Source of the DNA: an uncultured Gammaproteobacteria bacterium
GTDB taxonomy: Bacteria > Patescibacteriota > Microgenomatia > CAZTEW01
Direction: 5' to 3'
DNA length: 64,000 nucleotides
NCBI GenBank assembly: GCA_964612215.1
Contig: CAZTEW010000001.1
Span: 12,432-76,431 of the forward strand
The position numbers were made by a program, and so were the translations under genes. Below the pieces are notes generated by a model. That model made no database searches. It saw nothing but the letters and a program-made list of their open reading frames with translations, and was not told the DNA's origin. Shown in pieces: positions 1-16,030 of this stretch; the first letter of the stretch is position 1, and each line of letters opens with the position of its first letter.

Positions 1-1243
1 GGGTGTTGGGTTGGGAATAAATTGCCAGAAAAGCCGCCAGCCAGGCTAAAGTACCGATGCTGACCGTTGCCTGGACAATCTTTTTCCACGGCAGCCGGAG
101 TTGTTCCCAAAACCAAGCGCTCCAAAGACAAAAAAGCGGGTAAAGGGGGAGAAGATAGCGCATGAATTTGACGCTAAATCTGCCGACGACCAAAAAGTAA
201 GCGAGGAAAAAAACCACCAGAATTATTTCTTTGGCCTCGATATCTTCTTCGCCCTTGATTCTCACCCGCCGATAAAGACTCAAGAAATACCAGGCGGTGG
301 CCAAGAAACTCATCGTTCCCAAGGTAATGCCCATGCCCCAAAGATATAAATTTTTGAGGTGATAAAGATAAGGGACAGTATCCACATATTGGAGAGTAAA
401 GGGGAAAGTGAAAGCATCTTTGGTCATTTGGTGTTGAGCCTGGATTTGCTGCCAAAAAGTCGGGAAATCAAGCAGGGCATAGGGTTCGGTTAAAGCAAAA
501 ACAGTGATTGTCGTGAGAAAAACAATCAGGCCGAAGGCAAGTAAAGGCTTAATTATTCTCCAGGTGGCGGTTTTTTTCCTGAAAATAACTAAACTGATTT
601 TCTGCCACCAGCGAGCCGTTTGTTGGCGCCAATATTTGAGAAAAATTAAAACCAGATCAAAAGCAAAAGCAGCGCCGATAGCGCTAACCAAAACTGAGGC
701 GCTGATTTTAGTGGCTAAAGCCAAGCCAAAGCTGATGCCCAGCCAGACAGCTCGCCGCCGGCTTTGTTTTTCATAAAAAAGAATCAATTGGTAAAGAGTC
801 AGGAAGATAAAAAAATTAAGTGGAACATCAACTGCGTAAAAGTGAGAAAGCTGGACCGGCAAGGCGCAAATCGCATAGAGAAAAGCCGCCTTTAACCCGA
901 TTTTTTCGGAAAAAACCCTTTGGCCGATTTTAAAAATCAAGAGCAGGGTTGCCAGGTCAAAAATGACTGATAAAATCCGGCCGACCCAATGCAGGTGGCT
1001 GTAGTGAGCCCACTGAGGACCGAAAATCAGACTGACCAACCAACCGGCAAGTTTTAAAAGATAAAGAGGCAAACTGCCATAAGCAAAAAACTTAGGATTG
1101 AGGTTGCCGGGACGCAAATTCTCCGCCACCATGATAATCATTCTTTCGTCAGGGTGGAGGTGATAACCCTGGTCCCAGTTAAGGCCATAGAGGCGGAGAA
1201 TGGCGCCAAATGCCAGAATCATGAATAATGAATTACGAATCAT
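1..1243 (-). CDS. GT-C fold membrane glycosyltransferase (GT39 PMT/ArnT-like), 3' end cut by window edge
   Basis: Own minus-strand translation from ATG at 1243 reads MIRNSLFMILAFGAILRLYGLNWDQGYHLHPDERMII..YGSLPLYLLK..LALATKISA with no stop down to position 1. Absent from the ORF track because no in-window stop. Paralog of the 1248..2774 product (shared WDQGY-HPDE, YGSL, LALATKI motifs). Polytopic. Confidence 0.55.
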   Translation of the reverse strand, partial: MIRNSLFMILAFGAILRLYGLNWDQGYHLHPDERMIIMVAENLRPGNLNPKFFAYGSLPLYLLKLAGWLVSLIFGPQWAHYSHLHWVGRILSVIFDLATLLLIFKIGQRVFSEKIGLKAAFLYAICALPVQLSHFYAVDVPLNFFIFLTLYQLILFYEKQSRRRAVWLGISFGLALATKISASVLVSAIGAAFAFDLVLIFLKYWRQQTARWWQKISLVIFRKKTATWRIIKPLLAFGLIVFLTTITVFALTEPYALLDFPTFWQQIQAQHQMTKDAFTFPFTLQYVDTVPYLYHLKNLYLWGMGITLGTMSFLATAWYFLSLYRRVRIKGEEDIEAKEIILVVFFLAYFLVVGRFSVKFMRYLLPLYPLFCLWSAWFWEQLRLPWKKIVQATVSIGTLAWLAAFLAIYSQPNT

Positions 1244-1247
1244 GAAT

Positions 1248-2774
1248 TTAGATTTCGAGAAGACTTTCATAATCACTTTCCGTGAAAAATTGGGTTTTTT
1301 GGTAAATCCTAATGACCGGGTGGTCAAAAACAGACCAGGTTTCTTCAGCCATTTCATCAGGGATTAAAGGATAAGAGCTAAGCTCTTTGATTTTAAGAAA
1401 ACCTAATTGATTAGCGAAGAGCAAATCATAAAAGCGGCTGGTCAGAGGAAACTGGTTTGGCAAGCGCTGGTGGTTGCTGAACATTCTCCGGCTTTGGACG
1501 ATAAAATAGTCAGCTTCAGCTAAGAGACCAGGCAGTTCTTGCCGGAGGCTGGCTTGCTCGTCAAGATGATAAAAATCAAAGCCGACTTTTTTCAAACTGC
1601 CGGTTAGCGGTACTTCCAGCATGTTGCCGGATTCGGTCAGAACGGTTGCTGCCGCCGGCAGATTGGCATTCAGCCAGTCAGTCGCGGTGATTCTGACATC
1701 AGGCCGGAGATAGATAGAGAAAAAGATCAAAGTCCAGAGAAAGTTAGTAAAAAGTAAAAAGTAAAAAGTAAAAAGTAAAAATTTATTTTTTATTTTTTTA
1801 TATAAATAAGCGGTGAAGATGGCGAAAAAGGGAAAGCTGGGAGCAATAAAGCGGGTCCATTTGGCAAAAAGAAAAGCATGGGGTAGAAAAAGGAGCAGAA
1901 AAGCAGCGACAACCAAACGCCAATTCGGATTTCTGATGGCCAGAAAAAAACCGATGGTTCCCAAAAGCAAAACCGCTGGTCCGAGAGCGTAAGGGAGAAT
2001 TTTCTGAAACTGGAAAAGAACAGGCAGGGTGTTAATGAACTGGCGAGTGTAAAAAACTACTGGTTGGCCGCGGCCGACACCAGTTTCATAATTTAAAGAA
2101 TGGGAGAAAGCAGAGTAATCCAGCAGGCTATAAGGGAAAGCGCAAAAGAAAACAAAACCGGCAAGGAAAAGAGGAACGATCACTTTTTCGATTAAAAGAA
2201 AAGGTTTCGTTAAAACGAAAAATAACAAAATTGGTAGCCAAAACAAAACAGTAATTTTGGTAGCCAGAGCCAGACCAAAGCTGGCTGCGGCAAGATAAAG
2301 AAATTTGAGTTTTTTTGTTTTTTGGTACTGCATACCCAAATAAAGAAATAAAAATAGCCAAAAGGTCAAGTTAGATTCTGGGGTGGCAAAATGAGCTTGC
2401 TGGATTAGGCCAGGGAGAGTGGCGCTGAGCGCGGCCGCGAGAAGCGCCTGTTTGGGAAAGAGCCGGCGGGCAATTAAATAAACAAGAATAATCGTTAAAG
2501 TGGAAAAAAGAGCGGCGTAAAAACGGCCAATAATAATAGCGGGTAGCGTGTGGCCGATGGCGGCCAGCAGCAGCTTGGTGAAATAAATGAGATAAACAGT
2601 TAATGAGCCGTAAGAGAAAAGCTCAGGGTTCATCTGGCGGGGAAAAGAGAGTCTTTCAACTGCCGCGGCAAGATGGTATTCGTCCGGATGGAAGAAGTAA
2701 CCCTGACCCCAGTCAAGCTTAAAAAACCTGAAAAAGCCGCTAATCAGAATAATCAAGAGAAGTTTAAACGACAT
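1248..2774 (-). CDS. GT-C fold membrane glycosyltransferase (GT39 PMT/ArnT-like)
   Basis: 508 aa, more than 10 predicted TM helices. N-terminal loop motif DWGQGYFFHPDE, then YGSLTVYLIYF. Tandem paralog of the upstream truncated gene. Confidence 0.6.
   Translation of the reverse strand: MSFKLLLIILISGFFRFFKLDWGQGYFFHPDEYHLAAAVERLSFPRQMNPELFSYGSLTVYLIYFTKLLLAAIGHTLPAIIIGRFYAALFSTLTIILVYLIARRLFPKQALLAAALSATLPGLIQQAHFATPESNLTFWLFLFLYLGMQYQKTKKLKFLYLAAASFGLALATKITVLFWLPILLFFVLTKPFLLIEKVIVPLFLAGFVFFCAFPYSLLDYSAFSHSLNYETGVGRGQPVVFYTRQFINTLPVLFQFQKILPYALGPAVLLLGTIGFFLAIRNPNWRLVVAAFLLLFLPHAFLFAKWTRFIAPSFPFFAIFTAYLYKKIKNKFLLFTFYFLLFTNFLWTLIFFSIYLRPDVRITATDWLNANLPAAATVLTESGNMLEVPLTGSLKKVGFDFYHLDEQASLRQELPGLLAEADYFIVQSRRMFSNHQRLPNQFPLTSRFYDLLFANQLGFLKIKELSSYPLIPDEMAEETWSVFDHPVIRIYQKTQFFTESDYESLLEI
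1747..1781. repeat. Heptanucleotide tandem repeat (gtaaaaa)x5 inside GT-C gene
   Basis: Direct read: gt dinucleotide recurs at 1747, 1754, 1761, 1768, 1775. Encodes FLLFTFYFLLFT on the minus strand. Confidence 0.85.
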
Positions 2775-3669
2775 AGATAATGAGGATAGTCATTAATCCC
2801 CAGCCCATGACGCTTAAAGAAAGAGGAATGTCACTGGTCAGGAGCTTCTCCGGCCTTTCGCCGGCCTGTTTCTCATAAATCAGCTGGGCGTAACGCATAA
2901 TGCCGAAAATGACAAAAGGAATCGTGGCGGCCATCAACCACTTTCGGCCCAGAGCCTTAGGGAAGTTAATCACTAAAAATTGAGTTAAGGGCTCGCTGAA
3001 TTCAGGCGGTTCAGTGAAAAAGGTAAAAAGAGCATAAGAGACCAAAGCGGCGTTGGCAAAAGTTGAAGTGTAAAAATCAAGCAGTTGGCGGCGGTAGGCT
3101 AACAGCGCCGGTCTGGTTTTGGCGCCTTCCAAAACCAGTTCTGATCGCCGCTTGCCGGAGGCAATAAAAAGAGCCAGAAAAATAGCGGTGAGCATAAGCC
3201 AAATGGGAACATGAAAGCCGGTCAAGGCCTCGCCGACAAAAATGCGGATGATAAAAGAACTGGCAATGATTAAGATATCAACGACGGCAAATTTTTTTAA
3301 GAAAGAAGAATAAAGAAGGTGCAGGCTGATAAAAAGAAGGCCGAGGAGAAAAACGCTGATGCCTAAAAGCAAGCTGATAATCAAGCCGCTGATCGCCAGA
3401 AAAACAGCTAGCTGAATAGCAGTCTGAGGCTTTATTTTGCCGCTCGCCAGCGGCCGGTGTTTTTTTTGAGGATGGCGTTGGTCATAAGGCAGATCGATTA
3501 AGTCATTAAAAAGATAAGAAGCAGAAGAAAGTAGGCAAAAGACGCCGAACCCGCAAAGACAGCGGAGGAAAATTTCCGGGTTAAGCAGCTGGCCGGTAAA
3601 AATAATGGCGGTAAAAACCAGCGCGTTCTTAATCCACTGACCCGGTCTCAGAGAAGTGATTATAAACAT
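2764..3669 (-). CDS. UbiA-family prenyltransferase, decaprenyl-phosphate phosphoribosyltransferase-like
   Basis: 301 aa polytopic protein. N-terminal RPGQWIKNALVF and NDLIDLPYDQRHP (NDxxDxxxD) motifs, typical of the DPPR synthase branch of UbiA. Confidence 0.6.
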   Translation of the reverse strand: MFIITSLRPGQWIKNALVFTAIIFTGQLLNPEIFLRCLCGFGVFCLLSSASYLFNDLIDLPYDQRHPQKKHRPLASGKIKPQTAIQLAVFLAISGLIISLLLGISVFLLGLLFISLHLLYSSFLKKFAVVDILIIASSFIIRIFVGEALTGFHVPIWLMLTAIFLALFIASGKRRSELVLEGAKTRPALLAYRRQLLDFYTSTFANAALVSYALFTFFTEPPEFSEPLTQFLVINFPKALGRKWLMAATIPFVIFGIMRYAQLIYEKQAGERPEKLLTSDIPLSLSVMGWGLMTILIIYVV

Positions 3670-4970: not shown

Positions 4971-5447
4971 TCACAGAGCAAAGAGCAATCCGAGGATGAC
5001 GAGTGCGCCGCCAGCCAGAGCGGTGAGCCAGGTGGGTAGAGTGATGCCAGCTTCAGGCAGAGGAATCGGCGTCGGTGTTGGTAAGGCGTCTGGAGGAGCA
5101 GGCGGCGGCGTTGGCGTTGAAGTTGGTCCTGGGGTGGGCGTGGAAGTTGGTCCGGGCGTGCCGGTAGGCGTCGGTGTGCCGGTTGGCGTCGGTGTGCCGG
5201 TTGGCGTCGGTGTGGAGACGCCAGCGACATTAAAGCTTAAAGTGCAGGCGGCAACCGGATCCCTTTCGGCGGGTGGTAGTTGGGTGGGTGTGGCGGTCGG
5301 TTCCAGGGCCGGCGCCGGCTGGGGCGCGGTCGGAGCGACCGGCTGCTGGCGGAGCTGGTAGAGCCGCAAGGCAGTTATCACCGCAATCACCGCCAAGATG
5401 ACGGTCGCGCCTAAAATAAAAATTGTCGTCCGGTTTTTCTTTGGCAT
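4971..5447 (-). CDS. Small Pro/Thr-rich surface protein with N-terminal signal-anchor and C-terminal LPEAG-hydrophobic tail
   Basis: 158 aa. N-terminal TM. TPTPTGTPTPTG tandem repeats (tandem at the DNA level, 5100-5220). C-terminus LPEAGITLPTWLTALAGGALVILGLLFAL. Confidence 0.5.
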   Translation of the reverse strand: MPKKNRTTIFILGATVILAVIAVITALRLYQLRQQPVAPTAPQPAPALEPTATPTQLPPAERDPVAACTLSFNVAGVSTPTPTGTPTPTGTPTPTGTPGPTSTPTPGPTSTPTPPPAPPDALPTPTPIPLPEAGITLPTWLTALAGGALVILGLLFAL

Positions 5448-5451
5448 ATTT

Positions 5452-6843
5452 TTATCTCCAGCCTAGCGAGGGATTTTTTACCATCGCCTCGACCGTATAA
5501 CTACCTGAACTGGGAACTTCATACTGGACATAGAACTTGCCTGATTTTTTGCCGGTCGGTATTTGCCAGCTGCCGGCGTTAAACCGGAAGCGAGCGTCAG
5601 TAATGCCCTGAGGTTCTTCGCAACCGCCAGCGACCGCAAAATAAATTGTCTCGCCGACGCTGATCGTATTGAGATTGGTAATCGGCTGCCAATCCTCATT
5701 AAAAGCCGCCAGGCTGGTACAGCTTAAACTGTATTCTTGACCAGCTTCGCACCCCTCAACACAACCATGATCGCTGTTATGGCAGATGTCAAATCTAATG
5801 TCAGACTGCCAGGCACAATATTGAGGCGGACCATTGGCACTATTAGTATTGCCTCTGGTCCAGACTTCGTCTGGAGTGAGAGTCACTGCTTCGGAAAAAT
5901 CGCCACCGCTACAGAAGCAACTATCATTGTTTTGATGATCACACCAACGAGAAAACCAAACAGCCGTGCCGCTAATTGGCTGGTCAGTATTATTGATGAT
6001 CTTGACGCCGCCTTTATTTGCCTGACATTCTAAAGTGCCGCTGCCGACGCAAGTGCCGCCTTGACATTTGCCGGAAGCGCAATCTGAATCATAAACACAA
6101 CCAGCGTGACTGCCGCAGCTTTTACCACTAGCGCAATTGCCATTATCGACACTGCATGATTCCCAGTGAGCACAATCATTAGGGCCAGAGCAACAACCAG
6201 GTTTGCCAGGTTCTGGTTCAGGTTTACAGACGCTGCAGTTCGGATCATCGGTTTTCATGCATTGCTGGCCTTCGGCACAATCCTTGGTGCCGCTGCAGCA
6301 TTGCGTTCCCGGCGGGCTGGTGGGGCCAGGTGTTAAATCACCAGAACAGGGAGAGTTAGCTGGGTCAGGATTGACTGCTCCGGCGGAACAAGTGTACTGA
6401 TGGGTATCAGCATCACACCAAGTATCTGGCAAATCAATATAATTACAAGCTTGGTCACAGCCCCAGCGGCCGTCGGCATCGCAAGTGCTCCAGCCAGGTT
6501 CATGACCATTACATTTATGTTGGGGATTGTCAGGGTAATTACAGATATTATCGGCCATTTTGCGGACTTCCTGGCGCTGTTTGACTAGGGTCAAAGCCAC
6601 CGGCAGGGAAATGAGAATCAAAGCGATACCGGCAATTGCGGCGGCGACCCGGCCTTTTTTCTTGTTTGCCGCCGGCTTAATTTCCGGAGTTTCTTGGATG
6701 TTCCCCGGCTCTGGCTGTTTGTCAGTTGGCGGTGGCGGTGGCGGTGGCGGTGGTAGCTCAGCTGGCGGCACTGGCTGGCTGGCGGGAGGATTAATACCGG
6801 AAAGAGTTGGCGTTGCTGGCGGATTGGTCGGTTGGTCAGGCAT
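5452..6843 (-). CDS. Cys-rich ectodomain protein with polyproline N-terminal tail and single TM (type II topology)
   Basis: 463 aa. N-terminal about 60 aa Pro-rich including PPPPPPPPP. Then TM, then LVKQRQEVRKMA motif. Extracellular region has more than 50 Cys in CxxGxC-like spacing. 1-nt overlap with the upstream gene. Confidence 0.5.
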   Translation of the reverse strand: MPDQPTNPPATPTLSGINPPASQPVPPAELPPPPPPPPPTDKQPEPGNIQETPEIKPAANKKKGRVAAAIAGIALILISLPVALTLVKQRQEVRKMADNICNYPDNPQHKCNGHEPGWSTCDADGRWGCDQACNYIDLPDTWCDADTHQYTCSAGAVNPDPANSPCSGDLTPGPTSPPGTQCCSGTKDCAEGQQCMKTDDPNCSVCKPEPEPGKPGCCSGPNDCAHWESCSVDNGNCASGKSCGSHAGCVYDSDCASGKCQGGTCVGSGTLECQANKGGVKIINNTDQPISGTAVWFSRWCDHQNNDSCFCSGGDFSEAVTLTPDEVWTRGNTNSANGPPQYCAWQSDIRFDICHNSDHGCVEGCEAGQEYSLSCTSLAAFNEDWQPITNLNTISVGETIYFAVAGGCEEPQGITDARFRFNAGSWQIPTGKKSGKFYVQYEVPSSGSYTVEAMVKNPSLGWR

Positions 6844-8126
6844 TAAGGACTAAATTTAAAGTTTAAAAACAAGCCGCTAAAAATAAGGCTCAATCCCAGT
6901 ATGACAAAGAGAAGAGTGGGTGTCAAGTAGCCTGACTGAGGCACCCCGCTTTCAGTTGACGGCAAAGAAGTTCTTGGAACGCTGGTTGGCGTGGGGCTGG
7001 GGGTTGAAGTTGGCGAAACCTGGCCTGAAGGCGTGGCTGTAAAAGAAGGCAGGTCAGCCTCGCCGGCGGCAAGAATGGTAAATTCGCGGGAAACCGCGGC
7101 GCCGTCAGCGGTAGTAATCGTGATCGTGTGAACACCAGGTTCAAGATTAGCCGGCGGTACCCAGTGCCACTGGCCGTTTTCGTCAATCAAGACTTCGACT
7201 TCGAAGCTGGCTGAAGATTCCAGAATCAGGGTGACGGTTTCACCCTGAAGGCCGGTGCCCTGAAACTCAGGCCTCAAAGTATTTATCCCTTCACCTTCTT
7301 CAGGGTTAAGAATGGTTAACGGACTGATCCCGGGCCGATTGAGATTCAAAGGGTTAAGATTAAAGCCAGAGTTCCGGAATCCGGACGGCTGAGTCGGTTG
7401 AACCAGCGCCGGCCGGCGAAAATCATAAGTCTGGCCGAGAGTGATTTCTGGCACCGGCGAATCGTTTTGGCTGGTGACCAAAACCGTCGCTTCTCCCCAG
7501 CGGCCGGCCTGGACAAAAATTTCCTCGCTAGCGCTAGTACGGTCATAGTCAAAATAGCGAGTCAGGTCAGCGGTTCTGGCCATGCTTAAAGGAATTGTCC
7601 AGTGGCCGTCGGCCTGACTCAAGCCGGAAAGCGGACTGGCGCCAGCCAGGGTTAAATAAACAATCGCTTCCTGGCTAGGAGTGCCATCGGGTTGGAAAAC
7701 CTGGCCGTAGGCGGCGTCAGCCGCCGCTGCGGTCTGAAGATAAGGGCCGGTGGCGACTTCGTAAGGCCGGCCCTGCTGGTCATAGAGTTTCTCACTAGAG
7801 CCAATTTTTAAATAATATTTTGTTTCCGGCTGAAGATTTTCAATTTTTAAATAATGAAGCAAGTTAGTCTGGGTTTGAGTCTGGGTTTGGGTTAGAGAAA
7901 GAGAAGTTCCGTATTTGACAAGACCGACCGTTTCCTGATCAGTGATCCAGGAGACAGTAAAGCTGTTGGCATCAATATTAGTCACTTTAATTTGTTGAGG
8001 GATTGTTTGGGGAGCGGCGCCGAGAAAGCCAGTCCCGCCTTTTCTCAGCAAGAAAAGGCTAGCGGTCACGGCTGTCAGAATTAAAAAAAGGGCCAGGAGA
8101 GTGGGAATTGATTTTTTAGCTTTCAT
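6843..8126 (-). CDS. Surface protein with FN3-like and bacterial Ig-like domains and C-terminal hydrophobic anchor
   Basis: 427 aa. N-terminal signal-anchor. FN3-like FTVSWITDQETVGLVKYGTS..YYLKIGS. Ig-like TVTLILESS..HTITITTADGAAV. PT-rich linker. C-terminus VPQSGYLTPTLLFVILGLSLIF. Confidence 0.5.
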   Translation of the reverse strand: MKAKKSIPTLLALFLILTAVTASLFLLRKGGTGFLGAAPQTIPQQIKVTNIDANSFTVSWITDQETVGLVKYGTSLSLTQTQTQTQTNLLHYLKIENLQPETKYYLKIGSSEKLYDQQGRPYEVATGPYLQTAAAADAAYGQVFQPDGTPSQEAIVYLTLAGASPLSGLSQADGHWTIPLSMARTADLTRYFDYDRTSASEEIFVQAGRWGEATVLVTSQNDSPVPEITLGQTYDFRRPALVQPTQPSGFRNSGFNLNPLNLNRPGISPLTILNPEEGEGINTLRPEFQGTGLQGETVTLILESSASFEVEVLIDENGQWHWVPPANLEPGVHTITITTADGAAVSREFTILAAGEADLPSFTATPSGQVSPTSTPSPTPTSVPRTSLPSTESGVPQSGYLTPTLLFVILGLSLIFSGLFLNFKFSP

Positions 8127-8425
8127 TCTTTTCCAGGCTGGCCGCTAGGATTGGCACTAGAGGTTGTTTCGTTAGCTTCTGCGACCGGCCCTAATTCCTC
8201 CAGCCGGCCTAATTCTTCTTCTGAAATCCGAAGACGTTCTTTAAGCTGGTTGATTACCTCTTGATTTAATTTAGGATCCAAGGGCTGCATTTGTTGATCG
8301 AGAATTTCCGGTAGAGTATATCGAGTTAAAGCTCGGTAAACATCAAAGCCTATCCAGACCGCCACGGTCAGTAAAGTGGAAACAGCTAAGCTGATTAAAT
8401 CGCGGTTGATTTTTTTCTTTTTCAT
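8123..8425 (-). CDS. Small membrane protein (pilus-operon associated, function unknown)
   Basis: 100 aa. MKKKK plus one TM plus charged C-terminal region. 4-nt overlaps on both sides suggest translational coupling. Confidence 0.4.
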   Translation of the reverse strand: MKKKKINRDLISLAVSTLLTVAVWIGFDVYRALTRYTLPEILDQQMQPLDPKLNQEVINQLKERLRISEEELGRLEELGPVAEANETTSSANPSGQPGKE

Positions 8426-9039
8426 GGCAAAGAATAGATTTGAGCCTGAATTGTTAACATAATTGATGTTTCTTCTTCAAGGCCTGACTTTTCTTCAGCA
8501 AAGTCAAAGTTTTTTAAAATTACCAGTCTTTCCAGTTTTTCTAAATCAGTTAAGAATTTTTTTAAATCTTCATAATTGCCAGCGGCGCCAAAATCCACTG
8601 CCAGCGTCAATAGTTCGCTTTTTGGCTCAACAGGCAAGAGATCAGCCTTTTCTAGTTTAAAGCTGATGAGCTGAACGTTGTTTTTATAGGCCAAATATTC
8701 CAGTTGTTTGATGAGCTGAGAAAACTCGCTTTTTTTCGGCAAGGCGGCTTCAATATAGACCAGGTCTGGCTGGACGCGCAAATATTCCTTTTGCGCCAAG
8801 GAAAGAGAATTGATTTTTTGTTCCAGCTTTTGGCTAGCCTCACCCTTATCACGGATTTCCTTGATTAAGCCGCTGATGGTTCTTAAACTCGGCCTAATCG
8901 CGAAAAAGCCGCAAAAAGCGACCGTTAAAAGCGAAACTGCTAAAAAAGTAACATCTTTCACCGCCTGATCTTGATAAAGACCACCCAGGCGATGATAGTA
9001 GCGACGGTATTGGTGGTAAGGCTGTTGGCGATTATTCAT
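8422..9039 (-). CDS. pilO: Type IV pilus assembly protein PilO-like
   Basis: 205 aa. Single N-proximal TM, coiled-coil segment, C-terminal ferredoxin-like region typical of PilO. Immediately follows the PilN-like gene. Confidence 0.5.
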   Translation of the reverse strand: MNNRQQPYHQYRRYYHRLGGLYQDQAVKDVTFLAVSLLTVAFCGFFAIRPSLRTISGLIKEIRDKGEASQKLEQKINSLSLAQKEYLRVQPDLVYIEAALPKKSEFSQLIKQLEYLAYKNNVQLISFKLEKADLLPVEPKSELLTLAVDFGAAGNYEDLKKFLTDLEKLERLVILKNFDFAEEKSGLEEETSIMLTIQAQIYSLP

Positions 9040-9607
9040 TTTTGATTCTGTTTAAAGAATCAGCGGCCGGTGTTGCTTCACTGGCGCTGACAGTAAACTC
9101 AATCAGGCCTGATTCTTTTTTCCTGACTTCTTCAAGATTAATTTTTTCTAACTGGAGCTTTTCTTTTAAGCCGGTGAGAAAATGATGAAAGCCGGCATCA
9201 GAAATGGAGGTGGCGCTAATTTGCCAGCCGCCTTTTTCGATTTTTAACTCTGTTAAAACAACGTCCAGGGGAATGATGACCGACAATTGCTGCAGCCGGC
9301 TGGCGGCCGGAATTTGTTCACCGCTTAAGCGGTTGATTTCATTAAGTCTTTGCTGCAGCCGGCGGAAATTGGTTTCTAAGTCTTCTAACGAGCCGACAAT
9401 CGCCTGTTGTTGTTTAATGGTTTCGCTCAAGTCCATCAATTCCCGGTCAAGCTTAAACCGGGAAAGAAAACAAACAATCACGATGAGTTCAGTAGTGATG
9501 ACAATCCAGCGGCCGACAGTCAGGGTCCAATGAAGCAACTTGCCTAAGGAAGTTTGTTCAAAAGTTTTGATAAAAAGCAAATTGATTTCTTTTTTCCAGA
9601 CAGCCAT
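9032..9607 (-). CDS. pilN: Type IV pilus assembly protein PilN-like
   Basis: 191 aa. N-terminus KKEINLLF matches the PilN INLLP motif. One TM, then periplasmic coiled coil. Confidence 0.55.
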   Translation of the reverse strand: MAVWKKEINLLFIKTFEQTSLGKLLHWTLTVGRWIVITTELIVIVCFLSRFKLDRELMDLSETIKQQQAIVGSLEDLETNFRRLQQRLNEINRLSGEQIPAASRLQQLSVIIPLDVVLTELKIEKGGWQISATSISDAGFHHFLTGLKEKLQLEKINLEEVRKKESGLIEFTVSASEATPAADSLNRIKNE

Positions 9608-9928: not shown

Positions 9929-11647
9929 ATGGTTGCTAATTTCTTAGGTCGGCGGCAGACGAACATTTCTTCCGCTGCCGCCATTATCAGTTTAATGATT
10001 GCTTTTTCCCGAATTCTGGGCTTGATGCGCAATCGGGTTTTGGCCCATTTTTTCTCTTCCACCGAGCTGTCTCTTTATTTTGCCGCCTTTCGTTTGCCAG
10101 GGGCTGTTTTCGACATTTTAGTTTTCGGCGTCATTTCCGCCGCTTTTATTCCTACCTTTACTGCCTATCTGGCTAAAGATGAAGAAAAACAGGCCTGGCA
10201 AATTGCCAATGGAGTTTTAATTCTGGCGTTGCTGGTATTTTTAGTCCTCTCCGGCTTGATTTTTTTATTGGCGGCGCCTCTTTACCGCCGGATTATTCCT
10301 GGTTTTAGCCAGGAGCAAATTGACCAAGTGGTTTTCCTGGCCAGAATCTTAATTGTTTCCCAGGGATTTTTCCTGCTGTCTTACTTTTTGACCGGCATTT
10401 TGGAATCATGGCAGCGCTTTTTAGTGCCGGCGATTGCGCCGATTTTCTATAACCTGGGAATTATCGGCGGCACGGCTTTTTTGGCGCCGAAATTGGGATT
10501 AACAGGGTCGGTTTTAGGCGTCGTGGCCGGCGCTTTTTTTCATTTTATTATTCAATTGCCTCTAGCTTTCAACCTTGGCTTCCGGCCGCGGTTAATTTTT
10601 AATTTTTCCCAGCCCGGTTTGAAAAAGGTGGGTCGATTAGCCTGGCCGCGGATAATTGAGCTTTCTCTTTTAGAGCTGGCGAAAACCATTGAGCTTTTTT
10701 TTGCTTCTCTAGTTTCAGTCGGCGCCTATACTTGGTTGACTTTTGCCAATTCGCTGCAGCTCTTGCCGGTGGATCTTTTCGGCACCAGCTTGGCCAAAGC
10801 CACCCTACCGACCTTTTCTTCTTTAGCGGCCCGCGAGGAAAATGACCAGTTTAAAAAAGTTTTTCTTTCATCCTGGCAGCAAATTCTCTTTTTAACTTTG
10901 CCGGCGTCGGTTTTTCTGGTGGTTTTGCGGGTGCCGATCGTCCGGCTGGTTTTTGGTGCCGCCCGCTTTACCTGGGAATCAACTTTGGAGACCGGGTACA
11001 CTCTTTCGGTTTTTTGCCTGGCGATTTTTTCTCAGGCTTTAGTTTTACTGCTTAACCGCGCCTTTTATGCTTTTCAAGAAACAAAAACAGCCGTGAAAGT
11101 TTCGGTTTTTTCTACTTTAATCAATATTATTCTCAGCGGACTCTTGATCTTAATTTTAAAATTTCCCCTTTGGGGGCTGGCTTTGTCTTTTACCCTGGCT
11201 TCTTTATTGCAGTTTTTAATTCTTTTTCGGCTGCTGGCAAACAAACTGGGCGGCTTTAGCAAAGAAGAAACCCTAACTCCTTTTTTGAAGACCGCCTTAG
11301 CAGCTGTTGTTGCCGGCGGTCTGATGTTTTTTCTTTTGAAAATTTTTGACCGGTCGGTTTGGGATAAACGGCTGTCTTTTTTAAATTTTTTCGGCTTGAG
11401 ACTTTCCACCAGCCTGGAGAAATTCGTTCTCGATACCCGCTACACGACTAATCTCATATTATTAACGGCTTTAGTGGCCCTAGCAGGCGCCGGGGCTTAT
11501 TTAGGCTTAGCTTGGGTTTTGAAAATCAAGGCCTTAATGGTCTTTTTAAAAACCGATTACCGGCTGGCCGGAAGAAATTTCTTTAAAGAGCCAGACCGAG
11601 AAATAATAACAGCAACCCCGAAAGAAGGCTCAGAACCGTTGGTGTGA
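9929..11647 (+). CDS. murJ: Lipid II flippase MurJ (MviN)
   Basis: 572 aa, 14 TM helices. N-terminus SRILGLMRNRVLAHFFSSTELSLYFAAFRLPGAVFDI matches the MurJ signature. Confidence 0.85.
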   Translation: MVANFLGRRQTNISSAAAIISLMIAFSRILGLMRNRVLAHFFSSTELSLYFAAFRLPGAVFDILVFGVISAAFIPTFTAYLAKDEEKQAWQIANGVLILALLVFLVLSGLIFLLAAPLYRRIIPGFSQEQIDQVVFLARILIVSQGFFLLSYFLTGILESWQRFLVPAIAPIFYNLGIIGGTAFLAPKLGLTGSVLGVVAGAFFHFIIQLPLAFNLGFRPRLIFNFSQPGLKKVGRLAWPRIIELSLLELAKTIELFFASLVSVGAYTWLTFANSLQLLPVDLFGTSLAKATLPTFSSLAAREENDQFKKVFLSSWQQILFLTLPASVFLVVLRVPIVRLVFGAARFTWESTLETGYTLSVFCLAIFSQALVLLLNRAFYAFQETKTAVKVSVFSTLINIILSGLLILILKFPLWGLALSFTLASLLQFLILFRLLANKLGGFSKEETLTPFLKTALAAVVAGGLMFFLLKIFDRSVWDKRLSFLNFFGLRLSTSLEKFVLDTRYTTNLILLTALVALAGAGAYLGLAWVLKIKALMVFLKTDYRLAGRNFFKEPDREIITATPKEGSEPLV

Positions 11648-12686
11648 GAAAGCCGGTTGCCGGCAAGTCTTCAGCGTCGGCCACCGTGAAAGAGACCGAG
11701 TCAGTGGTGGTTTGGCCGCTGCTGTCAGTGGCAGTGACTGTGGCCGTATGGCTGCCGGTTTCCAATTCGCTGGGCGGCGTCCAAGACCAGTTGCCGGCCG
11801 CATCAGCATAGACCATGCCGGTGATCGGCGTTGATTGCACGGTGATGGTGATTTTCGCTCCGGGAGCCGCGGTGCCAGATAAAGTTGGCGGATTACTGCT
11901 GCTGGAAATACTGCTTAAGCTGACCGGATTACTGGAGGTTCCGCCACCAGAAGCGGTAGTCGGTGTTGCCGTCGGCGAGGCGCGAGTTGGCGTCGGCGTG
12001 TTAGTGGGTTCGCCAGCTGATTGAGTGGGTGTGGGAGTATTCGTTACTCCGGCTGATTCTGTCGGCGTGGCCGTGGCTTCTGGCGGTATGGTTGTTGGTG
12101 TCGCCGTGGCTGTTGCCCCACCGCCAATCGTGTAAGAGCCATTGCTCGTCGGCGTCAAAAGAATATCGACATTGTCAATCTTGCTTTGAATTTTGCTTTG
12201 TTGAGGATCGAAACTTAAAACCACCGGATTAACCGCCGGCACTTCATTAGCCACGAGATTAAAAGAAGCGAGTAAAGTATCGCTGGCAGCGGTAAAGCCT
12301 TCAGTGGTAATATTAGCGCAGGCGATATCAATTTCAACCTGACTGCCTGTTGGAGTAATGGTTTTCACCGGACACATCCAGTTGCCGCTCGTCAGAAAAG
12401 AAGGATTAATTTGTAGACTAGAAGCCGTTAGGTTGCCGCTCAACGGATAAGTAATCCGCACCGCAATCGAAGAAATGGGAATGCTGACTGGATTAAAATA
12501 GACGCTGACTGGAAATGATTGGCCGACTTCATAATTACCTGAAGCTGGCGAAAGAGAAACTAGGGCTGTGCCGCTTGGCGTCGAAGCTCTTTTTCTGATT
12601 TCCTGACGCTGTTTGACTAAATAAACCCCCAAAGGAATGGCGACAATGACCAAAATAATAAAGAGTAAAATGGCAATTTTTTTCAT
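11583..12686 (-). CDS. Surface protein: N-anchor, cohesin-like domain, PT linker, Ig-like domain, C-terminal LPATG-hydrophobic signal
   Basis: 367 aa. N-terminus MKKIAILLFIILVIVAIPLGVYLVKQRQEIRKRA. Cohesin-like beta-sandwich region identical to that of 13294..14712. C-terminus LPATGFLTPTVLSLLSGLLLLFLGLAL. Confidence 0.5.
   Translation of the reverse strand: MKKIAILLFIILVIVAIPLGVYLVKQRQEIRKRASTPSGTALVSLSPASGNYEVGQSFPVSVYFNPVSIPISSIAVRITYPLSGNLTASSLQINPSFLTSGNWMCPVKTITPTGSQVEIDIACANITTEGFTAASDTLLASFNLVANEVPAVNPVVLSFDPQQSKIQSKIDNVDILLTPTSNGSYTIGGGATATATPTTIPPEATATPTESAGVTNTPTPTQSAGEPTNTPTPTRASPTATPTTASGGGTSSNPVSLSSISSSSNPPTLSGTAAPGAKITITVQSTPITGMVYADAAGNWSWTPPSELETGSHTATVTATDSSGQTTTDSVSFTVADAEDLPATGFLTPTVLSLLSGLLLLFLGLAL
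12205..12605. repeat. Copy A of perfect 401-bp direct repeat (partner 14219..14619)
   Basis: Compared both stretches base by eye and they are identical. Boundaries set by flanking mismatches. Encodes the shared RKRASTPSGT..VLSFDP cohesin-like domain. Confidence 0.8.
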
Positions 12687-12689
12687 CGT

Positions 12690-13307
12690 TTATTTAATTT
12701 GGTAAATGCCTGTTAGAAAATTAAGCTTTACTTTTTGGTTATCTTTAGTTGTTAATTTAGTCTGTTGAGGATCAAAAGCTAGGATTAAATTTTCAATCGC
12801 CGCTTCGGCCGTCAATTCAATTGTGCCTAAAATATCTTCTCCGTTTAGTTGAAAACCAGTCAGGGTTGGGTTAACAGCCGCTAATTCAAGATTAACAGTT
12901 TTATTTTGCCAGTCAACCCAAACTTTATTGATTGGGTAGATCCAGCCCTGTTGCTGCCAGTCAGAATTAGGTTGAATTTTAGTGCTTTGGGGTTGTAAAG
13001 GCGGGATTTTATCAAAAGGATAACTTAAGTGAAGAGCAATGCCAGAAAGAGAAAGATTTTGACCGGTTAGTCTGATCTCCAAAGATAGGTTTTGATCAAC
13101 CACTAATTGACTGTTTTGAGGAACAAGAAAGAGACTGGCTTGAGTTTCTGTCGTCATTTGCTTTTCCGGCAAACTAGATTCCGTGACTGCTTGGTGGAAA
13201 GCTGGATTTTTTGTTCTCTGCAGATTGAGAAAAACTAGCCAGCTGCCTATCACTAATAAAATGATTAGACCAAATAAAAACAACTTTTTCATTTTATTGA
13301 TCTCCAA
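12690..13307 (-). CDS. Membrane-anchored single-domain protein (cohesin-like)
   Basis: 205 aa. N-terminal TM then LNLQRTKNP. Beta-rich domain ending LAFDPQQTKL, similar to the FDPQQSKI region of the neighbours. Confidence 0.4.
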   Translation of the reverse strand: MEINKMKKLFLFGLIILLVIGSWLVFLNLQRTKNPAFHQAVTESSLPEKQMTTETQASLFLVPQNSQLVVDQNLSLEIRLTGQNLSLSGIALHLSYPFDKIPPLQPQSTKIQPNSDWQQQGWIYPINKVWVDWQNKTVNLELAAVNPTLTGFQLNGEDILGTIELTAEAAIENLILAFDPQQTKLTTKDNQKVKLNFLTGIYQIK

Positions 13308-14712
13308 GTACAGTCAAGGCAGTATAGTTTAATAAAACAGCAGAGATATCATCAATTTCGATGAAACTATTAGCATTGACATCAAATTGCTGATTACTAG
13401 CGCTAACCGGCACTGATAGAGCCGTGTAAACGCCAATAACGGCGCCTACGTCATCAATGTCAAGCTGATTATCATTATTAAAGTCGCCGCTCTTAACTTC
13501 AATTGAATTCCAAGAAGCAGAGGCCTGATTATTGCTGGCTGTGAGAGTGATGTTGCCAAGTTTTTTTTGTAAATGACCGTTATCTTTAACAAGAACTTCA
13601 ACATTAACGCCACCAGCAGGGAAAGAGAGATTGGCCAGAGAAATAGGATTAACAGGTGCAAAAGAACTATGAGCGCCGCTTTGACAAATAACACTGGGAT
13701 AAACTTGACCAGACGGTCCTTTAAGAGTTACCCGGATAGATTTAGAAATTCCTTGTTGATTGATTCCTTGCATTCTGAAACCAAAAGAGAGCGTGGGAGC
13801 GTTAGTCGTGGCTTCAGCAATATTTGACAAATTAGAAATGTTGCCCGCAGTATCAATAGATTTAATGGCAAAATAGTATTTTGTTCCGGGATTAAGTCCA
13901 GAAACAGTAAATGTTTCAGCTTTTCCAGGGTTGCCTGGGATTGGTAATCCACTCACTGGTGTAGCGCTAGACCAATTAGTGTTAGTAATCACTGAAGTAG
14001 AATAGCGCAGGTCGTAAAGGTTGGCTTTTCCAGCTGGTCCTGCGTCAGCGGGAGCGGTCCAAGACAAACTTAAGGAGTTAAAGGAGACGTTAGTTATATT
14101 CAGATTAGTGATGGCGGCTGGCGGTGTCAAGTCTAGGTTAATTGTATATGAAGCAGCGGCTGGCGGTGTTAAGAGAATGTCTTGATTTTGAGCTTTGCTC
14201 ATGATTTTACTGGCGGCTGGATCAAAACTTAAAACCACCGGATTAACCGCCGGCACTTCATTAGCCACGAGATTAAAAGAAGCGAGTAAAGTATCGCTGG
14301 CAGCGGTAAAGCCTTCAGTGGTAATATTAGCGCAGGCGATATCAATTTCAACCTGACTGCCTGTTGGAGTAATGGTTTTCACCGGACACATCCAGTTGCC
14401 GCTCGTCAGAAAAGAAGGATTAATTTGTAGACTAGAAGCCGTTAGGTTGCCGCTCAACGGATAAGTAATCCGCACCGCAATCGAAGAAATGGGAATGCTG
14501 ACTGGATTAAAATAGACGCTGACTGGAAATGATTGGCCGACTTCATAATTACCTGAAGCTGGCGAAAGAGAAACTAGGGCTGTGCCGCTTGGCGTCGAAG
14601 CTCTTTTTCTGATTTCCTGCTTTTCTTGAGTAAGTTGAGAAGCAACAACCAAACCAATGATTAAAATTAAAAGAAAGAAAAAACCCAAAAGATATTTTTT
14701 CATTTTATTCAT
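13294..14712 (-). CDS. Surface protein: N-anchor, cohesin-like domain, FN3 domain, C-terminal type I dockerin
   Basis: 472 aa. N-terminus LTQEKQEIRKRASTPSG. FN3 LSLSWTAPAD..YYFAIKSIDTAGN. Dockerin repeats GDFNNDNQLDIDDVGAVIGVY and QFDVNANSFIEIDDISAVLLNY with Ca-binding D/N at positions 1, 3, 5, 9, 12. Confidence 0.55.
   Translation of the reverse strand: MNKMKKYLLGFFFLLILIIGLVVASQLTQEKQEIRKRASTPSGTALVSLSPASGNYEVGQSFPVSVYFNPVSIPISSIAVRITYPLSGNLTASSLQINPSFLTSGNWMCPVKTITPTGSQVEIDIACANITTEGFTAASDTLLASFNLVANEVPAVNPVVLSFDPAASKIMSKAQNQDILLTPPAAASYTINLDLTPPAAITNLNITNVSFNSLSLSWTAPADAGPAGKANLYDLRYSTSVITNTNWSSATPVSGLPIPGNPGKAETFTVSGLNPGTKYYFAIKSIDTAGNISNLSNIAEATTNAPTLSFGFRMQGINQQGISKSIRVTLKGPSGQVYPSVICQSGAHSSFAPVNPISLANLSFPAGGVNVEVLVKDNGHLQKKLGNITLTASNNQASASWNSIEVKSGDFNNDNQLDIDDVGAVIGVYTALSVPVSASNQQFDVNANSFIEIDDISAVLLNYTALTVLGDQ
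14219..14619. repeat. Copy B of perfect 401-bp direct repeat
   Basis: Identical to 12205..12605, offset 2014 bp. Confidence 0.8.
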
Positions 14713-15982
14713 CGCCAGGTATCACTAAAGCAGTATAATTTAATAAAATGCCAGAAACATCAGTGATATCAATCATATTATCACCATTAATATCAAATTG
14801 TCGAGTGCTGCCGCTCACCGGGACCGATAGAGCGGTGTAAACGCCAATGATGGCGCCAACATCGTCAATTGCAAGCTCGTTGTTGTTATTAAAATCACCG
14901 GCTTTGAGGATTTGTTCGGGCGCGTTGAGGAGAGCGGCTTGGCCGGCGGCGAGCTCGACTTGGCCGAGATTTTTTTGCAAATGAGCCCAGCCTTTGACGA
15001 AAACAGTATAAGCGCCGGGGTCAAGGTTATGGAGAGTGCCGACATAGACGCCGCTGCCGTCGTGACCGAACTCAAAATTATCAAAAATCTGATCGTTGCC
15101 ACTATTTGGTCGAAGAGTGACTTTAGCTGTTTTTACTCCTTTATCGCCATCAATGCCCTGAAATTTGATTTTAATCGTTAAATTGCCTTTTTGCGGTTCC
15201 TGGGTAGGCGTTGGGCTGGGAATTGGCGTGTTGGTCGGTGTCGGCGTGTTGGTCGGTACTGGCGTGGCGGTTGGGTTAGGCGTTGCTGTCGGCGTTGGTG
15301 TCGTTGTGGCGGTAGGCGTAGGTGTGTTCGTTGGTTCGCCGGCCGGAACAGCCTCAATGACAATCGCATCAGCGGTTCCCAAAATGTCTTCACCTGCCTG
15401 ACTAACAACATTGGTATCCGGCGTACTGCCTTGAATAACTGTTTCCTGGCAACTGGCATCAGCCGTACTGCGGAAGCAGAAACTAATCTTGCTGCTGCCT
15501 TCAGCCAGAGCTTTGAAAACAATAGTTGCTAAGGGATTGACGATGGTTTCAACAGGATCGGTAGCGCTATCAGCCATCCAATTAAAACCTAAAGCGCCAA
15601 AAGAAAGCATGCCGGTTTGATTGGCTTGAGCGATGACTGTGTCTTTATCAAAACTGCCATCTGCAAGAACCGGAGCAAAGGTTTTTAAGTTTGTGGTAAG
15701 GTTAGGCATAATATCCATTACTTGCAGTAAATTTTTATCAAAAGTTAATATGATATCAGCGGCAACGACACTTTGACCGCCAGGGTTAAGAATCAGATTA
15801 ACATCAAAATTGTTGCCAACTACTGGTTGAGTTTCGCCAGCTAAAACCAGTGCGGCGCTGTAGTTAACGGCTTTTTTTCTAATTTCTTGATGCTGCTGGA
15901 CAAGAATAGAAACAGTCACGAGAGCGGTTAAAAGCAGCAAAAAAGAAAAAATCGCCCACCAAGTTTTTCTGGTTATTTTCAT
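14705..15982 (-). CDS. Surface protein: N-anchor, cohesin-like domain, long PT linker, C-terminal type I dockerin
   Basis: 425 aa. N-terminus LVQQHQEIRKKA. PTNTPTPTATTTPTPTATP linker. Dockerin repeats GDFNNNNELAIDDVGAIIGVY and QFDINGDNMIDITDVSGILLNY. Confidence 0.55.
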   Translation of the reverse strand: MKITRKTWWAIFSFLLLLTALVTVSILVQQHQEIRKKAVNYSAALVLAGETQPVVGNNFDVNLILNPGGQSVVAADIILTFDKNLLQVMDIMPNLTTNLKTFAPVLADGSFDKDTVIAQANQTGMLSFGALGFNWMADSATDPVETIVNPLATIVFKALAEGSSKISFCFRSTADASCQETVIQGSTPDTNVVSQAGEDILGTADAIVIEAVPAGEPTNTPTPTATTTPTPTATPNPTATPVPTNTPTPTNTPIPSPTPTQEPQKGNLTIKIKFQGIDGDKGVKTAKVTLRPNSGNDQIFDNFEFGHDGSGVYVGTLHNLDPGAYTVFVKGWAHLQKNLGQVELAAGQAALLNAPEQILKAGDFNNNNELAIDDVGAIIGVYTALSVPVSGSTRQFDINGDNMIDITDVSGILLNYTALVIPGDE

Positions 15983-16030
15983 TTAATTTTCATCCTAAAG
16001 TAAAATTTGACTAAAGTCAACTCTTAGGAC

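Follow-up and report, generated by a model that had tools for sequence, protein, structure and literature searches.

Most of what is known about the pairing of cohesins with dockerins comes from Firmicutes that degrade cellulose, and its role elsewhere is largely unexplored. In the described systems that come closest to the one reported here, scaffoldins are held on anchoring cohesins by dyads of an X-module and a dockerin (X-Doc), and anchoring through the single-cohesin protein ScaE is covered by the same review (PMC12484212). The type II X-Doc of Clostridium thermocellum CipA, which binds the SdbA, OlpB and ScaC cohesins, attaches the scaffoldin to the cell surface in this way. Non-cellulosomal pairs have also been described in two organisms of other lineages, Archaeoglobus fulgidus (cohesin 2xdh) and Clostridium perfringens (glycoside-hydrolase toxin complexes 2jh2, 2w1n and 2vo8). 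Here we analyse a cassette of four genes (p4, p3, p2 and p1) on the minus strand, positions 15982-11583, of a 64-kb stretch of contig CAZTEW010000001.1 (positions 1-64000, hereafter the window). We put at roughly 60% the probability that this cassette is the scaffold/anchor part of a cellulosome-like cohesin-dockerin surface display system. No description of such a cassette in the Candidate Phyla Radiation (CPR)/Patescibacteria was found in the searchable literature on cohesins and dockerins or on sortases and LPXTG signals; the nearest report concerns a dockerin-domain protein that is essential in a cultivated Saccharibacterium and is proposed to target host glycans (PMC10633639).

The four open reading frames (ORFs) that a first-pass annotation of this DNA had proposed are indeed present at the coordinates given, on the minus strand, co-directional and head to tail in the order p4-p3-p2-p1, with the following predicted domain organisation:

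14705..15982, minus strand: p4, 425 residues; transmembrane helix, cohesin of a divergent subtype, Pro/Thr linker, immunoglobulin (Ig)-like module, dockerin
13294..14712, minus strand: p3, 472 residues; transmembrane helix, cohesin, FN3 domain, Ig-like module, dockerin; full-length orthologues found
12690..13307, minus strand: p2, 200-205 residues; transmembrane helix and a single cohesin, nothing else
11583..12686, minus strand: p1, 367 residues; transmembrane helix, cohesin, Pro/Thr/Ala linker, Big_13 Ig domain, LPATG and hydrophobic tail

The p4/p3 and p3/p2 boundaries overlap by 8 and 14 nucleotides (nt), respectively, and 3 nt separate p2 from p1. Such a layout is typical of an operon, here of four genes, and co-transcription is predicted. 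The start of p2 is probably the ATG at 13292 (200 residues), as given by an independent gene call on contig L005, instead of the TTG at 13307 (205 residues).

All four proteins contain, after the N-terminal helix region, a beta-rich module of about 155 residues. The N-proximal modules are homologous (blastp E of about 1e-13 for p1-p2 and p1-p4; profile-profile probability of 98%), with those of p1 and p3 being almost identical and those of p2 and p4 being relatives at 20-27% identity. A common module in all four proteins had been proposed in the first-pass annotation, and the homology bears this out; the literal string quoted for it (GNYEVGQSF...VLSFDP), however, occurs in p1 and p3 only. Single sequences were too weak to detect cohesins and dockerins, since Pfam and NCBIfam returned only sub-threshold matches for the individual cassette proteins and phmmer searches against the PDB were weak, and family profiles were needed. 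Two such profiles represent the cohesins, one built from the p1/p2/p3-type module (A3) and one from the p4-type module (A6), which forms a separate subfamily with profile evidence of its own. Two of the cohesin modules have these positions:

15389..15859, minus strand: p4 cohesin module, residues about 42-198
14134..14598, minus strand: p3 cohesin module, residues about 39-193; core DNA the same as in p1

Profile A3 matches the Clostridium acetobutylicum cohesin CaCohA2 (6kgc_A) end to end at 4.5e-6, and 33 of the 34 matches of A6 among solved structures are cohesins, the best at 1.5e-8. The predicted structures point the same way. The AlphaFold2 model of the p3 N-terminal module has a predicted local distance difference test (pLDDT) score of 92.4, nearly all of its top 50 Foldseek matches in the PDB are cohesins (best 1.3e-10, TM-scores of 0.71/0.76), and these structure searches recover the nine-stranded beta-sandwich of the cohesin fold. 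Precomputed matches to the Pfam Cohesin family (PF00963) also exist for some homologues (P0133, P0137, P0145 and P0146). By profile and predicted fold, then, the N-terminal modules of all four proteins are cohesins, as the first-pass annotation had read them, and they are predicted to bind dockerins. A reading of these modules as CnaA/CLIPPER isopeptide domains was rejected because cohesins rank above such domains in every search.

The C-terminal repeats of p3 and p4 were examined in the same manner. They are present exactly as first quoted: DFNNDNQLDIDD.../DVNANSFIEIDD... in p3, with calcium loops at residues 410-421 and 444-455, and DFNNNNELAIDD.../DINGDNMIDITD... in p4, with loops at residues 363-374 and 397-408. 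Each repeat is a 12-residue EF-hand-like loop followed by a helix (H113-122 and H147-156 in the p3 model). Of the loop positions said to be D or N (1, 3, 5, 9 and 12), this holds for 1, 3, 5 and 12 in four of four loops but not for position 9, which reads D, E, A, D, the exceptions being E in the second loop of p3 and A in the first loop of p4. An Asn is invariant at position 6 of loop 1. When a profile of the C-terminal 71 positions (A2) was compared with solved structures, the top 29 matches were all dockerins (best 2b59_B, 4.1e-10), and EF-hand proteins appeared only from 3e-3, some seven orders of magnitude behind. Dockerin_1 (PF00404) itself is matched by 5 of 13 full-length orthologues, down to 3.4e-10. 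Taken together, profile and model indicate that the p3 and p4 C-terminal repeats are dockerins.

In both proteins the dockerin is preceded by the same Ig-like module, so that each ends in a two-module dyad:

14708..15184, minus strand: p4 Ig-like and dockerin dyad; calcium loops 14861-14896 and 14759-14794
13297..13794, minus strand: p3 Ig-like (X-module-like) and dockerin dyad; calcium loops 13450-13485 and 13348-13383

AlphaFold2 folds the C-terminal 166 residues of p3, comprising both modules, as a single unit (pLDDT 95.7, predicted TM-score 0.89). Foldseek returned nine significant PDB matches for this unit, all of them scaffoldin dyads of an X-module and a type II dockerin, from C. thermocellum and Acetivibrio cellulolyticus, with both modules aligned over 162-176 columns at TM-scores of 0.51-0.58. 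Likewise, the best A2 profile matches are type II X-Doc entries (2b59_B, 3kcp_A, 5k39_B and 5g5d_B), ahead of type I. Since the best sequence and structure matches are both type II X-Doc dyads, the type I label originally attached to these dockerins is unsupported, and the combination of Ig-like module and dockerin is better described as a putative X-Doc-like, type II-like dyad.

In six-frame hidden Markov model (HMM) scans of the window, the p1/p2/p3-type cohesin profile matches p1, p2 and p3 only, and the dockerin profile matches p3 and p4 only (94.9 bits for p4). Such a confinement of cohesin and dockerin matches to the cassette is far beyond chance. It also agrees with the earlier proposal that p1 and p2, which have a cohesin and an anchor and lack a dockerin, are arranged as anchoring scaffoldins are. 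These results bear on the simplest competing explanation, namely that no cohesin-dockerin biology is involved, the N-terminal modules being generic CnaA-/Ig-like stalks and the repeats structural EF-hand-like calcium sites. Cohesins outrank all other folds in both structure searches and are the only significant sequence-profile matches, while dockerins precede EF-hand proteins by the margin given above, and we regard this explanation as very improbable. At the family level neither an unrelated Ig/FN3 fold of the N-terminal module nor a failure of the dockerin repeats in profile searches was seen, by profile or by predicted structure.

The surface display system that we favour would work as follows. 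Each cassette protein would be exported or anchored through its N-terminal hydrophobic helix and would present one cohesin. p1 would be further tethered at the wall or membrane by its LPATG-type tail, as an analogue of an anchoring scaffoldin, and p2 would be a minimal, membrane-proximal cohesin. p3 and p4 would act as adaptors, their X-Doc-like dyads plugging, with calcium, into a cassette cohesin, most plausibly that of the anchored p1 or p2, and their own N-terminal cohesins, left free, would take up other proteins that bear a dockerin or would join p3 and p4 into chains. We infer the cohesin-dockerin pairing, and with it the self-assembly suggested in the first-pass annotation, as well as the identity of the pairs, the cell-surface location and the sortase processing of p1; the N-terminal helix may or may not be cleaved.

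Members of the cassette occur together in five other genomes or contigs, and in two of these all four types are adjacent:

L001, GCA_965610445.1: p4-, p2-, p3- and p1-like genes, adjacent
L004, metagenome-assembled genome DBS2-1.bin56: p4-, p3-, p2- and p1-like genes, adjacent
L002, 810-kb genome whose p3-like protein is labelled 'Patescibacteria group bacterium': p4-, p2- and p1-like genes adjacent, p3-like gene 4 kb off
L003, contig end: p4- and p3-like genes adjacent (partial set)
L006, Logan assembly: three-gene set of a dockerin-bearing 490-residue gene (P0130), then p2- and p1-like genes

A scan of GTDB genomes with a narrowed cohesin alignment found one locus, L004. The p2 orthologues in L001, L002, L004 and L006 match the cohesin profile. 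Although identities across genomes are no higher than 20-63%, every cohesin clusters with the one at the same position in the other cassettes, and from these comparisons the cohesins are four old, distinct orthologous types that have been kept together. Their retention as a set at such low identities favours a functional unit over a recent duplication. The named homologues come from a Patescibacteria group bacterium, Candidatus Levybacteria and a soil metagenome record (locus-tag prefix BH10PAT1), and the host is probably a Patescibacteria (CPR) bacterium. Bacteria of this lineage are very small and depend on hosts; most have not been cultivated, and little is understood of their surface biology.

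The same conservation speaks to a second alternative, in which the four genes encode tandem paralogous surface adhesins. The folds would be real, but nothing would pair within the cassette; the ligands would be external, for example glycans or proteins of a host cell, or the partners encoded elsewhere, and the clustering would reflect duplication history only. The N-terminal module common to all four proteins and the apparent recent gene conversion between p1 and p3 (see below) fit this picture, as do the stalk domains (FN3, Big_13 and Ig), the lack of enzymes in the cassette and the essential Saccharibacterium protein proposed to target host glycans (PMC10633639). However, four ancient orthologous cohesin types would then have stayed together at 20-63% identity in several genomes without a common task. 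Moreover, the presence of dockerins on diverse enzymes in relatives implies protein docking, and known dockerins bind cohesins. We consider the adhesin explanation unlikely.

The evidence from relatives was obtained by searching the dyad profile against 1.84 billion cluster representatives. It matched 185 clusters at E<=1e-30, a number that rises to 1140 at the looser limit of E<=1e-10; in the best 150 listed clusters the dyad is C-terminal. At least 68 of these 150 representatives also have an N-terminal cohesin. A Pfam scan of 69 of the remaining representatives (those without a counted cohesin) identified Glyco_hydro_cc (4), GH26 (2), GH42 and GH123 domains, as well as subtilase, papain-like protease, phytase, beta-helix, VWA, CBM4_9 and other domains; Dockerin_1 was found at E<1e-4 in 28 of the 69. 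At L006, some 4 kb away from the cassette, there is a GH16/beta-helix-dockerin gene (692-3058) whose product has a canonical AXA signal peptide. Thus the dockerin in this lineage behaves as in cellulosomes, that is, as a tag on varied secreted cargo. Three further dockerin-bearing loci were noted: a dockerin-tagged protein of 588 residues without a Pfam match (L003, 5072-6838) and a repeat protein with one dockerin-like segment (L004, 3-1382), each beside or near the cassette; and adjoining PAN_4- and beta-helix-dockerin genes on a Levybacteria contig (L007, 7001-10618).

A broader version of the display system can be put forward tentatively. The four single-cohesin proteins might form a Patescibacteria hub that mounts much of the dyad-tagged secreted proteome, possibly via head-to-tail chains. 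With a cargo that included hydrolases, proteases, phytase and adhesins, such a hub might amount to an enzyme-agnostic 'cellulosome' that serves an episymbiont in host attachment and scavenging. The occurrence of the dyad on glycoside hydrolases, proteases and phytase in relatives also limits the first-pass statement that the complex is adhesive rather than enzymatic: there is no glycoside hydrolase in the window, and the statement holds for the window, but as a general one it was too strong.

Sequence homogenisation within the cassette provides a further line of evidence. The p3 and p4 dockerins are mutual best matches within the genome in three of five genomes. They are 67% identical here, 75% identical in L002 and 99% identical in L003, where both share a unique insertion. 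The Ig modules beside them follow orthology, not within-genome pairing. This homogenisation is consistent with a shared partner for the two dockerins. The genes of p1 and p3 share a repeat in their cohesin regions:

12205..12605 and 14219-14619: near-identical direct repeat of 401 nt, spanning the p1 and p3 cohesin cores

The two copies are 100% identical over about 395 nt and have sharp boundaries, beyond which the flanks are about 55-60% identical. In this genome the p3 cohesin now resembles the p1 type more closely than its own; in other genomes p1 and p3 cohesins are only 30-42% identical. The repeat looks like a recent gene conversion of p1 into p3. An independent assembly (an ENA contig) matches the window exactly at 10594-14294 and stops inside the p3 copy, as assemblies tend to do where they run into a genuine repeat. 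The dockerin and repeat patterns both fit gene conversion and are compatible with selection for a common partner, without proving it.

The identity of the two cohesin cores raises the possibility of a self-polymerising fibre, in which p3 and/or p4 would join head to tail into a non-pilus filament rooted on p1 and used for host attachment. This would be a special case of the scheme outlined above. p3 and p4 each have one cohesin and one dockerin; since the p3 core equals the p1 core here, any dockerin that binds p1 should bind p3 too; and a cohesin accompanies the dyad in relatives at the frequency given above (at least 68 of 150). The p1 and p3 cohesins are, however, far less alike in other genomes, and their identity here may be incidental. 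To our knowledge, self-polymerisation does not occur in the classical adaptor scaffoldins, which likewise combine a single cohesin with a single dockerin. A fibre therefore seems improbable to us.

Several observations weigh against the display system as a whole. The window sequences miss both curated Pfam cutoffs: p4 scores 21.9 bits (E 2e-4) with PF00963, below the cutoff of 24.1, with no match on p1, p2 or p3 in a single-sequence scan, and p3 scores 10.7 bits with PF00404, below the cutoff of 22.9, with no match on p4. The Pfam check suggested in the first-pass annotation therefore fails on the window sequences, and it is the family profiles that match solved cohesins and dockerins. There is one cohesin per protein, unlike in classical multi-cohesin scaffoldins, and no carbohydrate-binding module (CBM) was found in the window or on p1-p4, so the multi-cohesin scaffoldin with a CBM that defines a cellulosome in the strict sense is absent. 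No dockerin-tagged enzyme and no ORF with a TLxTC sortase motif was found in the window. Basic residues, which usually follow the helix of such a signal, are missing from the p1 tail, and this tail matches neither TIGR01167 nor Gram_pos_anchor (PF00746). Finally, gene conversion with no functional significance, as for the 401-nt repeat, could by itself account for the homogenised dockerins.

A hydrophobic helix of about 21 residues opens each of p1-p4, and in p1, p3 and p4 it is followed directly by the motif Q-x-Q-E-I-R-K-[KR]-A. Further domains are:

13816..14115, minus strand: p3 FN3 domain (Pfam fn3, E 3.4e-11)
11586..11666, minus strand: p1 sorting-signal-like tail LPATGFLTPTVLSLLSGLLLLFLGLAL

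The Big_13 Ig domain of p1 is matched by Pfam at E 9e-13, and the protein ends in LPATG and a 22-residue hydrophobic tail. In other genomes p1-type proteins always end in xPxTG (LPVTG, PVTG or PTTG) and a hydrophobic helix, and two of these orthologue tails are borderline with TIGR01167 (15.8 and 16.2 bits; cutoff 15.9).

The juxtamembrane motif has a wider distribution. In the form Q-x-Q-E-[IV]-R-K-[KRM]-A it is found at 12585-12614, 14599-14628 and 15869-15898, and also in the minus-strand ORF 5452-6843. A relaxed version (basic residues and an Ala within 18 residues) is present in 81 of 117 Ig+dockerin representatives, including enzymes, versus 13 of 134 controls, and in alignment A6 no column but that of its Ala is invariant. 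For a Sec signal it would be unusual to have the positive charges on the outer side of the membrane, as is presumed here. The motif may be a lineage-specific cleavage or sorting site.

The cassette lies between hrcA-grpE-dnaK (plus strand), upstream, and a convergent murJ, downstream. p4 and hrcA diverge from a region of 48 nt, in which visual inspection revealed no obvious CIRCE-like operator; a short palindrome, TTGACTAAAGTCAA, occupies 16009-16022. Promoter-like hexamers were also noted:

15992..16020, minus strand: TTGACT-17-TAGGAT, just upstream of p4; a match to the sigma-70-like consensus only

At the other end, murJ on the plus strand and p1 on the minus strand overlap by 65 nt at their 3' ends (11583-11647), and a terminator-like hairpin lies within this overlap (11638-11613, minus strand). 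Beyond murJ, at 4971-9607 on the minus strand, pilN and pilO, with no pilM upstream, continue via overlapping stops and starts into a 100-residue transmembrane protein and three surface proteins. The first of these has FN3/Big_13 domains and ends in VPQSG and a helix; the second is Cys-rich, has 463 residues and no Pfam match; the third is Pro/Thr-rich, has 158 residues and ends in LPEAG and a helix. A functional tie between the cassette and this pilN-pilO operon was rejected, as the convergent murJ intervenes and the neighbourhoods of the cassette elsewhere are unrelated. An Rfam scan of the window found one tRNA and nothing else. GC skew is positive in nearly all 2-kb blocks of the window, whatever the gene orientation, and the cumulative skew reaches 1.95; a strand-composition bias has been reported for a Microgenomates genome (PMC7143001).

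These organisms are not known to break down cellulose, and a compact, conserved cohesin-dockerin operon in them suggests a scaffold for surface display in minimal form; in relatives the dyad is carried by secreted proteins of diverse kinds, in hundreds of clusters. Should the predicted pairs indeed bind, the cassette would account for the organisation of enzymes and adhesins at the surface of these cells, and it would offer new orthogonal cohesin-dockerin pairs for protein engineering.

Of the known systems, that of Ruminococcus flavefaciens offers the closest parallels to the individual proteins. p1 resembles the sortase-anchored ScaE, which has one cohesin and terminates in a signal of the LPXTG type, and the X-Doc of ScaB, like the dyads of p3 and p4, places an X-module and a dockerin at the C-terminus of a cohesin-bearing protein. 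Adaptor scaffoldins such as R. flavefaciens ScaC share the one-cohesin-one-dockerin plan of p3 and p4; unlike these, ScaC is part of a cellulolytic system and has no transmembrane helix, FN3 domain or X-like module. The dyad itself is best matched by the type II X-Doc of C. thermocellum CipA (2b59_B and 5g5d_B), but with TM-scores of only 0.51-0.58 and identities of 12-17%, and the Ig-like module of the cassette also resembles transthyretin/CarboxypepD_reg-like folds. The anchoring proteins of C. thermocellum use SLH modules, whereas p1 has an LPXTG-type tail. In the A. fulgidus and C. perfringens systems we know of no conserved four-cohesin operon and no LPXTG-anchored cohesin. What sets the present cassette apart, besides the lack of a CBM, the lineage-typical N-terminal motif and the probable Patescibacteria host, is that single cohesins directly follow the N-terminal helix and that four cohesin types are brought together in one small operon.

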